Origin: Paramecium tetraurelia
Lineage: Eukaryota
Direction: 5' to 3'
Length of the DNA stretch: 64,000 nucleotides
NCBI GenBank assembly: GCA_000165425.1
Contig: CT868003.1
Coordinates: forward strand, 186,001-250,000
Every line of letters begins with the position of its first letter. The stretch's first letter is position 1. A program made the translations under genes and the position numbers. The notes beneath the pieces were generated by a model. The model saw only the letters and a list, made by a program, of their open reading frames with translations, was not told where the DNA came from and searched no databases. Positions 42,080-48,132 of this stretch are shown one piece after another.

Positions 42080-42956
42080 TCAATATTTTAAGGCCTAATT
42101 CAATTGATTCTAAGTTTCCTTGTAAAGTGATTCGAAGTTAACCTATTCCAGGATCAGCAACATTGCTATTCCTCTCACATTATGGGCCAAGAATCCTCCA
42201 TAACCCCAACTGAAACTCCACTCCTTCATATTAAATTTCAATTTCTCCCACAAATTCTGCTTTTTTGATGCCTCTTACTAAAACAAAATCGATTTCACCT
42301 ACAAACGACGTCTCACACTGTCAATTGGATATATCAATGCATATGATCCCAAGTATGCTAATTGTTGATTGTAAGGAGTAGTGCCATCTAACAGAGAATT
42401 CAAACCCACTATGCCATATGCAAACAACAATGTCTATAAACACCCAACTGTAAATCCTGAATACAAGCCCTTGAAAAACCCACTCTCTATTTTTATATTA
42501 AAGCGAGTCTCCTCAAATCCAACATACATTCTTTTCTATCCTGGAATCTAAATTTCAGTTGCTTATCTCACTCTTATTGTATCAAAGGGGTAGGAGAATA
42601 TAGAAGTAGTAATGCCACAAAGTGTTGCACAAAGTCCCATTGACAAAAGCTTGAAATTCAATTTATTTATATACATCTTTGTCATAAGTGGCTTGTTTGA
42701 TATTTTGATAGAAAACATATTATGCATACACTTGAGGTATCCACATGTATATTGCAGTTAAATTTGATCTGAAGAGTCCTTTCGGTCCCTCATTTGATAT
42801 CGTTTTCTTAAGAAATTAATAAAAATTAGTCATCTTCTCTTTCGAACTCAGGGTAAGAATATCCTGGGTCTATCTGATGAGTTTATATCTCTCTAATGGA
42901 GCTAACAATGTTTTTACTATGGATGTGCTCACAAAGCCTTGAATATATTCCTCCAT
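42080..42956 (-). CDS. Mitochondrial carrier (SLC25) protein, nucleotide/CoA-type
   Basis: Three signature motifs APLERYK, YPFDTIR and YPIDSVRRRLQ; EG.KGLFR and GLYSG; one 25-nt intron gives 284 codons. Confidence 0.88.
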
Positions 42957-43139
42957 AAATAAAATGTAATATTAATTATTTTATTAATTTAAGCATTTAA
43001 AACTCGTACTTAACTCATTCTGAAATTTTGCAACACAATTCAAAATTAAGACATGGGAATACTCCTACTTTTATTTCAAGAAGATAATTCTGTTTTTAAT
43101 TATTTCGATAAGAATTAATTGTCAATATATACATTAATA

Positions 43140-44852
43140 ATGCTAAAAAATAATTAACATAAAAACTTACCTTTGTAGAAATATCTAAGTAGGTTTCGTA
43201 TCTGCACTCTGATCCTCCTTTTGAATATTCTCATAATTGCAGTGATAGTCCCACTTATTTTGGGAGTTTACCAAATCAACACTAATCTAGTCTATTATTA
43301 TTTTCAGGAATCTGCAAAGATGGCATTCGTAAATCAGAATAACAGGACGTTAAATTCAATAATGACATCCCAAGTGGCTTAATTGAAGAGTATGATGAAT
43401 CGAAGTAAACTTTCTGTTTATTCTTAAGCTGAGAGAACTCTGCAGAGCTTACAAAAATTGTATCTTCTTGATTAACATTATAATTTTTCAATAAACGTAA
43501 ATCCGGAGATGTGTCATACTTAATTTGATGATGAAGACTCATTTGACTATAGATATGACGGATATTGCATAAATATATATGATATTGAATTTGAAGAATT
43601 TTAATAATTACCTGAGTAAGACTACTTTTCGAGGGATTATAATTTTGTGTCCCTTATGAATGAATGCATAATGCCGATGGATCCCACTCAAATATTTTTA
43701 CCCGATAATATTTATTTTAGCAAAGTCGAAAGAGAATTCACTGCCTGGTGGCCTCAATGGAATAGAATTAGGGATTATCATCCCTCTAAAAGGACATGGT
43801 TTATTTAACATTTGCAGAATCATGAACAACACCCTAATTAAACTTGTTTCAAATCTGATATGTATCAATTTTTTGCAGACTATCCTGTAATGGCAATAAC
43901 CACTACTTGCAGTTTGAAGGATGAAAATAATAAATTAATTGCCATTTTGGCTTCAGATCAAGAGTTACTAGATAAATATTATAAGCATCCTAGGTTAAAT
44001 GTGATGATTGTGAATGTTGATGGAATGTTAGTAATTAGTACTATGGAGAGTTAATTGATAGCAAATTCAGCAGAACTTGGATATTTTTATGAATAAAATG
44101 TAACTGGTTTCAACAATGAGGATTGGGATTAGATTGTTAAGTATGTGTAAAATCACTCTTATTAATCAAATTGTTAATATTTTCCAATTCCAGATGATTT
44201 GCTATGCCGTTATAATTCATTGTTGAAATAGGATGTGATATTCTAAGTGCAGAACTTAACAAACCCAAATTTTCTTTACATATTGTAAGAAATGGATTTT
44301 GTAAATTATTTAGATTCTTCAATTTGACTGATGAAATTTAATGGTTGGTGGATCAATAAGAAATCATACAAGAAATCAATATCTAATCGTACTACAACAT
44401 TCTATTCCTGGTATCGATAGCGTTATTAATCATAACCATCCAATTGGTATGTATATAGATAATCTTCCTTCCTCTGAACGATTTAATCAAACACTCAAGG
44501 GCTTATCTCAAATCTAACTCTCACAGACTTCTCTTTAGATAGAAGGAATTCTACTTATATAACTTTTACATTGATGGTTATGCAAGCAGTATTGATATTC
44601 TCAATTTTAGATAATATCCTATTAGGGTTAAAGTTGGCATATAAATAGATCTATCACAGAATAAGCAAGCAAAAGTTTAAGAAATGTGATTAGTGCTAGA
44701 TCATTTAGAAGTTTTAGTATCCTTCAAATCAAATAAGAACTAAATTACATTTAATTAAACAACTGGATTTTGAATACTCCATTAAATTGACAGAGAATCA
44801 GATAAGGAAACAAATAGTTCAACCATGTTTAGTGAAGTCCTTTGATTTTTGA
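43140..44852 (+). CDS. Two-TM membrane protein with extracellular dCache-type sensor domain
   Basis: TM1 (ICTLILLLNILIIAVIVPLILGVY); DYHPSKRTWF..SDMY..AITTTCSL..KLIAILASD; VMIVNVDGMLV; TM2 followed by PLNDL; two introns (~44285-44313, ~44589-44610). Confidence 0.75.
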
Positions 44853-44979
44853 AATTAGTTATATTTTGCAGAATTACTATCAGAATAGAATATACTAGAT
44901 TTAATATATGTTAGAATAATCTACAAATTCAATTAAATTCTGGAAGATTAGTGAGTCACAAGATAAAGATTAAATGAAA

Positions 44980-45741
44980 TCACTTAATATTTTTTTGGAT
45001 TTGCTTAATTTACTTGTATAGATTAGTGTAGATCTCCAAGTTCTCCTGATGTAACTAATCTATATTCTCAACGATGTTCTAAATATCTTCATTGGGATTG
45101 GCGTGTCTTAGATTGCTAGAGACAGTAGGTTAAGCCACTCTTTGTACTATTTTCTTGTCTTTCTCTGAAAGTTGAAATTTTAATGAAAATGTATCAGTTT
45201 CTTGGAATTGTAATTTGAGTGATTCCATAAACACTCTGTCCCTCATTTTCTTTTCCTCAATGCGAGTAAGAATGAAGCGGTCAGCCTCGTTCAATTCTTT
45301 GCCCAACTTACGGACTATGAGATTATCTCTGGTCATCTGGATGGCATCCATTAAACGATTGACATTACGATCACTCCACAAATCTACCACTCCCATTGAA
45401 CCATCATTGGCGGCATCCCCAAATACATCTCTCACTTTTTTAATTAAAGGTTGTAAGTAGTAATTATTCTTCTTTTCGTGAGTTCTGAATCCAAATTTAA
45501 GGAAAGTCAGTCTTTTATTCTTGGATTGCTTATTGGCCACTCCAAATGTTTGATCTCGTTTCACTTGTATGTCAGTTTTAGGAAGTTCACGCATCTATTT
45601 GTATCTCAAGAGGCCTCGTAAATGACCCAAAGCAAAACTAGACTTTACATTTTCTTTAAGAATATCAATATTAGGCAGGAGAGAAGGTTCACTCTTCTAT
45701 TTGGGTTTATGCTGTTATGAAGATCTCGATAATTATTTCAT
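44980..45741 (-). CDS. Hypothetical basic/coiled-coil protein (~253 aa)
   Basis: Single open frame MKQLSRSS...IQKNIK-TGA; the 154-aa ORF-track entry is its core. Confidence 0.7.
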
Positions 45742-45793
45742 TTTAAATATATTAGAAATGAATTTAAACATCTCTATATTGCTAGGATAATTA

Positions 45794-48132
45794 ATGTTAA
45801 GGAGCATTATCAATATCATATAAGAGGGTTAAGAGGAGTCTAAAGATGCAACCACACTGACATTAAATTCATTCGCAGCCATTTTTATTTTGATAAGCTA
45901 CTTCGTGAATTACCATCTTACAAATCAAAGACTTTTGTAATTAATGATCATTTAGATCATTATAGTATTGCAATTTGAAATTTCATTTTATGACAACCAT
46001 CAATATTTATCTTTTAGCATAATCGTATACCTAATTTCACTCTAGCAGTATCTCAATAAACAAAGGAATTGTTTTCATTATTTAAGTCACATCGTATTGA
46101 TATATGTTGTTACCAGATTCCTAACACAAAGATTTAATGATCTTGTTATATGGGAGATCATACTAGTGTTAATATGGCAGCCATTCAATCATTATTTATT
46201 ACATTTGCTGAGACGAATAAAATATCAAAAAAAGGAAGAGTTAAATTCACAGATCCAATTCCATACTCTCTCAACACCCTAAGCATAAAACACTGAGAGA
46301 CCCGAAGAGCAACCTACAAAAGGTAATCTTGCTGAAGATTTTTTTGATTGTATTCCGGAGGGATTGGTTATTCTGGATGAATTTCATAAGATCGTCAGAC
46401 ACAATTCAAAAATATTGCATTATTTGAATATAACAGACCCACTTTAGATTCCATCAGCTCTGGATGGGCTGTTTAGAATGTAAAAGTTCAATTTAATTTA
46501 GAGCTCAAAAAAATAGAAGTCCTTAAAAGGAGAAAAAGAAGCCAGTTCCCTTGAAGCAAATCAAACAAAGGATGGATATACAATCTTATTATACCAGTTC
46601 TCTTGGAACTTCGTTGAAAAAGTAGTTCTGGATGTCTGATAAAGATCAATATAATTTTAGTCTGCAAAAAGGAGATTCCATTACTTACCCTTTCCTTTAA
46701 TCCATACTCAATGAATTCAAGCAATAGAATTTGAATGAAAATATGACCATAACTTCAGAGTGTAATAGCATAGTAAAATACTAAATATCATAAGAAAACT
46801 CAGTCAAATAAAGACACCTTTAAATCAAAATTTATGATATTAAAATGACTTCATATTCAACTACTCCAGTATTTTTATTTATTGTCGAAAATATAACCAA
46901 TAAGGAACAACTCAAATTATTAACGAATAGATTTAAATTCCAATAAGCATTGTTGAACTCCTTCAGTCACGAGTTGAGAACCCCTCTAAATTGCACTTTA
47001 ACTTTATTATAAGCACTCAAAAGTAAATTGAAAAATGAAGAACTGAATGATGAATACTTGAATCCTTCAATAGTCTCAAGTCAAAGATTGCTGTACCAAA
47101 TCAATGACATCTTGGATTATGCCTAATTGGAATGCCAAGATTTTTAAATCAACATTACTGAATTTAGAGTTGGCGAAGTATTTTAGACCTTAAAAGACTT
47201 CTTTGAATAAGAGTGCAAACAAAAACAAATCGAATTGATTATTGAGAATGAAAGCTTAATATCCATTCGAAGTGACAAGGATAGAATTACTTAGGTTTTA
47301 ATCAATCTCATTAACAATTCAATTAAATTCACATCTTAAGGAGGAAGAATTGTGATCAGTTTTAAAAAGAGAGACAATATGTATTAATTCACTGTCTGGG
47401 ACAACGGTTAAGGGATATCTAGTTTAACTTTGGCCAACATCTTTGAATCCCAGAAAAATATGTATGCCAGTGTTAAATTCTTAGAAAATACTTCTAATTC
47501 AAATAAGTTGGGACTCGGATTAAAAGTGAGCAGAGGTATCGCTAGGAATCTCTGTTAAAATGGAGATCTCATTATTAAAAGTTAAAAGGGTAGTTATACA
47601 TCAATTAACTTTTATGTTGAAGATCAACTCGTTAAAGTGAATGAAGATATCACAGAATAAGAATCCATCATGAGATTTGGAAGTAAGAACACTGTTCATA
47701 AATGTGAATGTCCCTAAATACTGATTGTTGATGATGTGCCCTTTAATCATATTGCCTTGATTGCCATTTTGAGCAATTTTGGAATCAAATCAGAGAGTGC
47801 TTACGATGGAGCACAAGCAATAGAAAAAGTGAACGTTAGATTAAAAAACAAGGAATGTTGTAAATCATATCGGATCATATTTATGGATATTGAAATGCCT
47901 GGCAAAAATGGATTTTAAACTTCAGCAGAAGTAACCATAATGTGATTCATAGATAGTTGAAATTTTGAAGCAATCCAATTCCCAGTCAGTTATAGTGATG
48001 TGTTCTGCTTATACAGGAGAAGCAAATGTGGAATAAGCTCGGCAATGTGGAATGAAAGAAATAATACCTAAGCCAATAGCTCTCAATAGTCTATAACTAT
48101 TAATATCTAAGTATTTTTAATCATTATCTTGA
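45794..48132 (+). CDS. Hybrid sensor histidine kinase (TM - PAS-like - HisKA - HATPase - REC)
   Basis: DCIPEGLVILD (PAS-like), SFSHELRTPLN (H box), QVLINLINNSIKFT (N box), WDNGQGI (G1), LGLGL (G2), ILIVDD..IFMDIEMPGKNG..KP (receiver). An alternative in-frame ATG lies at 45758. Confidence 0.92.

Follow-up and report, generated by a model that had tools for sequence, protein, structure and literature searches.

A surface protein of Paramecium tetraurelia that crosses the membrane twice, and in which a sensor of the bacterial dCache_1 type with an amino-acid pocket would signal through a separate partner, is the reading that we favour, at a probability of about 45%, for a gene in a 64,000-nucleotide stretch of contig CT868003.1 (assembly GCA_000165425.1, positions 186,001 to 250,000, forward strand; this whole stretch is called the window). 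The gene occupies window positions 43140-44852 on the plus strand and corresponds to GSPATT00030242001 (XP_001427006, UniProt A0BM41), with 100% identity over the part covered by the database entry. It is one coding sequence from the ATG at 43140 to the TGA at 44850-44852, with 4 exons, 3 tiny introns and a 545-aa product. The evidence that the ectodomain is a bacterial-type sensor is given first, followed by that on its ligand, its gene model, its cytoplasmic tail and its family.

The ectodomain almost certainly has the dCache fold of bacterial chemoreceptors. Two alignments were prepared: A1, with 25 sequences (23 of the 31 relatives found with HMMER, the eight excluded being short or partial, and the orthologues P0005 and P0006), and A2, with the 13 A1 relatives that retain the amino-acid motif described below. 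The A1 profile matched in the PDB the proline-bound sensor of a diguanylate cyclase (7k5n, E 1.1e-8) and the chemoreceptors 7w0w (8.6e-6), Mlp24 (6iop, 1.2e-4), PscC (6mni, 1.3e-4) and PctA (2.2e-3), and the A2 profile matched better than A1 (7k5n, 9.5e-11; PctA, 3.2e-6; CtaA, 3.9e-4). Among the profile matches listed, those with E below ~0.1 were Cache sensors without exception, and the scores for CACHD1 were insignificant (E 0.19 with A1, and 0.92). An end-to-end alignment links residues 55-388 to single bacterial dCache_1 domains. The ectodomain sequence by itself gave one chance match in the PDB (E 1.4).

Structural comparison led to the same fold. For an AlphaFold2 (AF2) model, A1 served as input, headed by the P. 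octaurelia orthologue (same length as the product of this gene, 93% identity, no gaps); the mean predicted local distance difference test score (pLDDT) of the model is 73.3. In it, a long helix (residues 21-106) precedes an alpha/beta module (approximately 156-296), a second module (approximately 297-388) and a helix that runs into the second transmembrane segment, which is the bimodular dCache arrangement of a long N-terminal helix, distal and proximal PAS-like modules, and a C-terminal helix continuing into the membrane. A Foldseek search with this model returned 104 PDB chains at E<=0.001, with dCache_1 ligand-binding domains, many of them amino-acid-bound, on top; the structures nearest to the ESM Atlas model were bacterial enzymes with the order transmembrane helix, dCache_1, transmembrane helix, HAMP (template-modelling scores 0.64-0.68). 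The bacterial-type double-Cache fold proposed in the initial annotation is thus borne out by the family-profile matches, Foldseek and the AF2 model. The HMMER comparison with dCache_1 that it had suggested was negative for the single sequence and positive for the family profile against solved dCache_1 sensors.

The distal module contains the AA_motif of amino-acid-binding dCache_1 domains as defined, with PctA numbering, by Gumerov et al. 2022 (PMC8915833; statements credited to this and other papers refer to the portions of them consulted). In the HMMER profile alignment with PctA, all five motif residues are matched, Y205, R210, W212, Y234 and D265 to Y121, R126, W128, Y144 and D173, respectively, and the PctA sequence reads YDPRSRPWY ... 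PY ... GGD beneath the family pattern Y-x4-R-x-W-Y ... Y ... D. The residues singled out in the initial annotation are therefore the homologous AA_motif positions, at the codons that it gave; it was also right that the distance from Trp to Tyr is long, and its spacings are corrected here to 22 residues from W212 to Y234 and 31 from Y234 to D265 (not 21 and 30). In receptors of the PctA kind these five residues contact the carboxyl and amino groups of the ligand. All five residues are retained in all four orthologues. The adjacent position 213 varies, being Phe in two of the four and Tyr in the other two; it is Phe in this protein and Tyr in most relatives, and its PctA equivalent, Y129, is structural and makes no ligand contact (bioRxiv 10.1101/2023.04.06.535858). 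The same source identifies PctA R126 as the residue that distinguishes amino-acid from amine receptors, and the PctA mutations R126A and D173A weaken or abolish ligand binding (PMC8915833). The pattern Y-x4-R-x-W occurs once across the six frames of the window, at this gene, and when the protein was shuffled the full pattern arose in 79 of 200,000 shuffles (0.04%), and its N-terminal part alone in 1.4%. The AF2 model has pLDDT 76-93 over residues 201-270. A ligand that is an amino acid or a close analogue is predicted from this motif, at slightly less than an even chance.

Several observations weigh against the proposed receptor. As single sequences, neither the window protein (0 families at E<=10) nor its closest orthologue (P0003; 0 at E<=1) matches any Pfam model, dCache_1 and MCP-like_PDC_1 included, and among 25 relatives dCache_1 is found in 2 (best E 3.5e-4) and MCP-like_PDC_1 in 3 (best E 2.2e-5), none strongly significant. 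The spacer between the motif halves (F213 to Y234) is 20 residues, versus 13-17 in prokaryotes (PMC8915833), and that the five residues line one pocket is a prediction. In 12 of 25 relatives the set R, W, Y234 and D265 is incomplete; the Cache fold thus persists in the family without the complete motif. The gene is weakly expressed, with 28 and 51 reads among approximately 1.1 and 1.3 billion letters sequenced in two runs, and the signalling partner is hypothetical. For the tail, HAMP (Pfam PF00672) was found in 0 of 17 isolated tails and is absent from the listed 25 of the 26 families found in the 25 relatives, Foldseek with the tail model returned 0 PDB matches at E<=10, and the fold searches gave no HAMP signal. 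The 13-17 range is given for prokaryotes only, and in alpha2delta the motif halves fall in different annotated domains (PMC8915833); in the alignment the longer spacer appears as a gap of six residues in the PctA row, after the start of the R-x-W-Y helix.

Some of these observations bear on what the ligand is. A protein of the same fold and topology might bind another small molecule released by bacteria (for example a carboxylate, amine, purine, folate or ammonium), with the motif kept for pocket structure or for a ligand that has no more than a carboxyl or amino group in common with amino acids. The spacer, longer than in validated prokaryotic amino-acid sensors, would agree with this, as would the variation of paralogues at motif positions, which suggests tuning to many ligands. 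However, all five AA_motif positions, the discriminating Arg included, are conserved in four orthologues, and the top profile matches are amino-acid binders (7k5n with proline, then PctA and CtaA); a ligand of another class is considered somewhat unlikely.

The gene model was established from RNA-derived contigs of two public runs (X3 and X9), raw oligo-dT RNA-seq reads of two others (X21 and X22), and orthologues. The window is AT-rich (GC 0.22-0.37), and the reading frame is open under the ciliate code only. The X9 contig (1632 nt) spans 43161-44867 and skips exactly 24, 29 and 22 nt at 43405, 44285 and 44589; the X3 contig (781 nt) spans 43125-43929 with the 24-nt gap at intron 1. Excision of intron 1 restores MMNRTERTL, which matches three orthologues, and the 545-aa product can be aligned gap-free with three orthologues of equal length, from P. 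octaurelia (505/545 identities), P. primaurelia (447/545) and P. sonneborni (429/545), the orthologues from four Paramecium species in all being 79-93% identical. The oligo-dT reads (28 in X21, 51 in X22) are confined to 43134-44875, with the first mate on the minus strand in all, and none lie in the flanks 43000-43066 and 44876-45000; transcription of the gene is thus evident, though weak. No ATG precedes that at 43140 in the transcript. An upstream in-frame ATG at 43053 was ruled out as the start, RNA depth being zero over 43000-43066 and the X3 contig beginning at 43125. The public model of 479 aa takes as its start an internal Met, number 75 when the frame is read unspliced; it lacks the first transmembrane segment and retains intron 1. 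The correct protein is the one of 545 aa starting at 43140, as supported by the RNA-derived contigs and three orthologues. The coding limits in the initial annotation were accurate, and the three introns went unmentioned in it.

These data also bear on whether the gene might be a decaying or functionless remnant of a transferred bacterial gene. The restriction of the family to Paramecium, its closer relation to bacterial than to animal Cache domains, and the low read depth would suit a remnant, but the frame is intact, three ciliate introns are correctly spliced, gap-free orthologues exist in four species with the identities given above (93-100% over the segment that follows the second membrane passage), and many paralogues have been retained. 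Because of this conservation and splicing, a functionless relic is regarded as very improbable.

Hydropathy predicts two membrane segments, TM1 (residues ~21-45) and TM2 (~401-428), with a tail of 117 aa after TM2. The cytoplasmic flanks are basic (5 K/R and 0 D/E in residues 1-20; 5 K/R and 1 D/E in the stretch after TM2), and the outer flanks of the two segments have 1 and 0 K/R. Of N-x-S/T sequons there are 8 in the 355-aa loop and 0 in the tail, and four loop cysteines are conserved across the family (C117 in 23/25, C135 in 25/25, C337 in 21/25, C348 in 21/25). This pattern of charge, sequons and cysteines agrees with an extracellular domain flanked by two passages through the membrane, the N-terminus being inside, and the layout first proposed, TM1 - extracellular domain - TM2, is upheld by hydropathy, charge bias and sequons. 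Compared with bacterial domains, the ectodomain is about 100 residues longer; most of the excess lies in 107-155 and 300-346, the regions that hold the conserved cysteines. The membrane-proximal module also contains an element, T314-G315-F-N-x-x-D320-W (approximately 44103-44126), in which T314 and G315 are conserved in at least 90% of the family and D320 in 25/25; PctA carries TGF at the place aligned to T314-G315-F. This element could form a second pocket or have a structural role.

The P-L-x-x-L sequence noted earlier after TM2 is present as P427-L-N-D-L431, with P427 kept in 19 of 22 full-length relatives, and the helices that follow in the AF2 model (426-441, 445-457 and 468-485) lie where a HAMP domain would be expected. 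The likeness to the start of a HAMP helix that had been noted fails every sequence test: besides the absence of HAMP from Pfam results, the tail matched no family of any kind, whether in the window protein and 17 isolated tails (both at E<=10) or in the 25 full-length relatives, and the tail profile matched no HAMP chain in the PDB (one unrelated match, E 0.7). The language-model neighbours of residues 400-545 are all HAMP clusters, with scores of 0.83-0.88, below the tool's trust line. Given the position after TM2, Pro427 and this weak lead, a divergent HAMP has about even odds, and the tail is not classed as HAMP here.

Residues 429-486 are the best conserved region among the orthologues (58/58, 56/58 and 54/58, or 93-100%, versus 131, 118 and 116 of 141 in the distal module and 36, 29 and 25 of 40 in TM2). 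Further along the tail, a C-terminal motif is conserved in 22 full-length relatives (K490 in 17, C494 in 20, E498 in 15 with Gln in 5 more, Q501 in 14, Y502 in 18 with Phe in 3 more, P503 in 14). The conservation of the tail suggests a partner-binding or relay element. The initial annotation had given the tail as ~110 aa with a CxxC; KCDQC is indeed present, and the tail is 117 aa. As a functional pair, C491/C494 was ruled out, C491 being kept in only 5 of 22 relatives versus 20 of 22 for C494, so that CxxC is not a family feature. The absence of a recognisable output domain was correctly noted: neither MCPsignal (the signalling domain of methyl-accepting chemotaxis proteins, MCPs) nor any other output domain was detected by Pfam in the 117-aa tail, and since none of the 31 relatives in the HMMER scan is longer than 572 aa, no family member has a fused output domain.

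To delimit the family, 1.84 billion representatives were scanned exhaustively with HMMER, which found 31 relatives at E<=1e-3 (10 of them at E<=1e-10) with lengths of 30-572 aa. Source names were obtained for 30 of the 31 (all but P0035): 25 are named and all are from Paramecium, namely P. tetraurelia, P. octaurelia, P. primaurelia, P. pentaurelia, P. sonneborni and P. bursaria, with at least 5 from P. tetraurelia itself, and five are unnamed fragments of 30-110 aa. The membership in an uncharacterised receptor family that had been suggested thus holds, in the form of 31 cluster representatives with many paralogues, Paramecium-only among those named. A word-indexed homologue search with the family alignment found the four orthologues only and, restricted to longer proteins, none, which is weak evidence. 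No second copy was found in the window by tblastn with 39 family proteins and fragments (0 of 47 matches outside the gene). Of the 25 aligned members, 13 have all of R, W, Y234 and D265. Among the 12 others, nine have L, M, N, V, Q or H in place of D265, one carries a different residue at R210 and two differ at Y234 alone; Phe often stands at Y234 where the Asp of D265 is lost. This variation resembles that of bacterial paralogue sets with diverse ligand ranges, and the family probably covers several ligand classes.

A cluster of approximately 566 aa in the ESM Atlas, recorded as Chytridiomycota (phylum known for 3 members only), scored 0.97 by language-model features, and its members have MCP-like_PDC_1 (19%), HAMP (18%) and dCache_1 (12%) domains. 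Eukaryotes other than Paramecium may have similar short Cache proteins, which is a lead only.

The positions of the features described are collected in Table 1.

Table 1. Features of the Cache gene and its product, in window coordinates
Feature	Position	Strand	Remarks
Transcribed region	43125..44867	+	As far as RNA-derived contigs reach
Exon 1	43140..43404	+	Residues 1-88 and base 1 of codon 89; cytoplasmic N-terminus, TM1, start of stalk helix
TM1	43200..43274	+	About residues 21-45; Kyte-Doolittle 19-residue windows up to 3.09; within AF2 helix 21-106
Ectodomain	43275..44392	+	Residues 46-400, 355 aa; double-Cache (dCache_1) with two eukaryote-style insertions; spans introns 1 and 2
Intron 1	43405..43428	+	24 nt, GT..AG, in frame; absent from contigs of runs X3 and X9
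Exon 2	43429..44284	+	Most of the ectodomain
N-terminal motif half, Y205 to F213	43776..43802	+	Aligns to PctA Y121-DPRS-R126-P-W128-Y129; codons start at 43776 (Y205), 43791 (R210) and 43797 (W212)
Y234	43863..43865	+	Equivalent to PctA Y144; invariant in the 13-member A2
D265	43956..43958	+	Equivalent to PctA D173; invariant in the 13-member A2
Intron 2	44285..44313	+	29 nt, GT..AG; absent from X9 contig; orthologues across the junction: FLYILFFNLTDE
Exon 3	44314..44588	+	End of ectodomain, TM2, first tail helices
TM2	44393..44476	+	About residues 401-428 by hydropathy; ends with conserved Pro427
Helical cytoplasmic segment	44477..44672	+	Residues 429-486; HAMP-like position, no HAMP match; spans intron 3
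Intron 3	44589..44610	+	22 nt, GT..AG; absent from X9 contig; orthologues across the junction: DGYASNNILLG
Exon 4	44611..44852	+	Includes TGA stop 44850-44852
C-terminal motif	44682..44723	+	K490-x3-C494-x3-(E/Q)498-x2-Q501-Y502-P503; family-conserved; identical in four orthologues

The upstream neighbour, on the minus strand at 42080-42956, is a mitochondrial carrier family gene of at least 2 exons (Pfam Mito_carr, E 2.2e-11 and 8e-12), unrelated to the Cache gene. Downstream, also on the minus strand, a 300-aa frame open under the ciliate code lies at 44980-45882 and has no Pfam family.

The closest known systems are the bacterial chemoreceptors whose dCache_1 domain binds amino acids (PctA, PctB and PctC of Pseudomonas aeruginosa, Mlp24 and Mlp37 of Vibrio cholerae, and CtaA), which share with the Paramecium protein a double Cache domain between two transmembrane helices; the likeness to PctA (A2 profile, all AA_motif positions matched) has been given above. 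In contrast to these receptors, the Paramecium protein has neither an MCP signalling domain nor a Pfam HAMP domain, its tail being 117 aa; its ectodomain is longer by about 100 residues, in insertions with the four conserved cysteines and N-glycosylation sequons; its motif spacer is 20 rather than 13-17 residues; and it is encoded by a eukaryotic nuclear gene with introns. Short bacterial dCache_1 proteins without an output domain are also among the nearest ESM Atlas clusters, with lengths of 362-437 aa (language-model score 0.95-0.96), one of them with HAMP (48% of members); their likeness, being by language-model features, is a lead only. Fungal and plant histidine kinases (such as Sln1) and a Naegleria adenylate cyclase have a bacterial-type extracellular Cache domain in common with the Paramecium protein, whereas the kinase or cyclase output is theirs only. 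Upadhyay et al. 2016 (PMC4822843) attribute to transfer from bacteria the Cache domains that they list in eukaryotes, namely those of alpha2delta, of histidine kinases from fungi and plants, and of the Naegleria cyclase.

The metazoan proteins alpha2delta and CACHD1 share with the Paramecium protein an extracellular dCache_1 domain in a eukaryote, the AA_motif and the lack of an enzymatic output; unlike them, it has two transmembrane helices and a single dCache domain that is not nested and has no VWA insertion. No VWA domain was matched in any of the 25 relatives by Pfam. According to Gumerov et al. 2022 (PMC8915833), the AA_motif occurs in most eukaryotic groups and a VWA insertion is present in every eukaryotic dCache_1 protein; in the consulted portion of the supplementary tables of that paper there is no Paramecium entry, and the sole ciliate is Litonotus pictus, with 5 rows. 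Alpha2delta and CACHD1 act on channels and co-receptors (PMC8915833). By this comparison, the Paramecium protein might be an auxiliary or trafficking subunit, like alpha2delta for CaV channels, held in a permanent complex with the Cache pocket at most modulating assembly or surface delivery. Alpha2delta and CACHD1 are the only well-studied output-less eukaryotic Cache proteins, and act in this way (PMC8915833), and a tail that has a short conserved motif in place of a domain would suit such a subunit. The architecture is bacterial, however, with two transmembrane helices and no VWA insertion; the profile scores for CACHD1 (E 0.19 and 0.92) compare with 1e-10 for bacterial sensors; and the strongly conserved helices after TM2 suit a conformational relay. 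An auxiliary subunit is therefore judged improbable.

For the favoured receptor, signalling through a separate partner would proceed as follows. An L-amino acid, or an analogue with amino and carboxyl groups, would bind the membrane-distal pocket formed by Y205, R210, W212, Y234 and D265, and its binding would displace TM2 together with the C-terminal helix, as happens in dCache receptors of bacteria. This shift would alter the helical segment after Pro427, and the K-x3-C-x3-E/Q-x2-QYP motif would then be presented to, or withdrawn from, a separate partner, which by analogy with alpha2delta and CACHD1 might be a channel, pump or kinase. As membrane potential carries the chemoresponses of this cell, a channel or a pump would be attractive as the partner, which is speculation. 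That the protein is a small-molecule sensor acting through a partner protein, whatever the ligand, is predicted with somewhat better than even odds. A part in chemokinesis towards amino acids is putative and rather unlikely. A bolder version, in which the family comprises the long-sought surface chemoreceptors of Paramecium for bacterial metabolites, with this member sensing amino acids such as glutamate, and in which, by a new route, a divergent HAMP-like helical relay and the K-x3-C-x3-E-x2-QYP motif for docking gate a channel or pump directly without kinase, cyclase or G protein, is doubtful and given still lower odds.

The assignment of a Cache domain is already known, and so not new, because the automatic UniRef/UniProt name of A0BM41 is 'Cache domain-containing protein'. 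No paper linking a Cache protein to a ciliate was found in the literature searched (Cache domain together with Paramecium was judged by titles and abstracts), and no paper was found for the gene and protein identifiers. In none of this literature was there mention of the corrected gene model that includes TM1, of an architecture of bacterial type lacking both VWA insertion and output domain, of the intact amino-acid motif, or of the Paramecium-wide family with its tail motif. Paramecium is attracted to bacterial metabolites, glutamate included (review, PMC8208649). The protein is a credible, putative candidate for a ciliate nutrient sensor. If its ectodomain binds amino acids, it would be a directly testable receptor candidate for this classic behaviour and an example of a eukaryote's re-wiring of a bacterial sensor module, minus its output domain, and it would offer a simple system for learning how output-less Cache proteins such as alpha2delta relay ligand binding.

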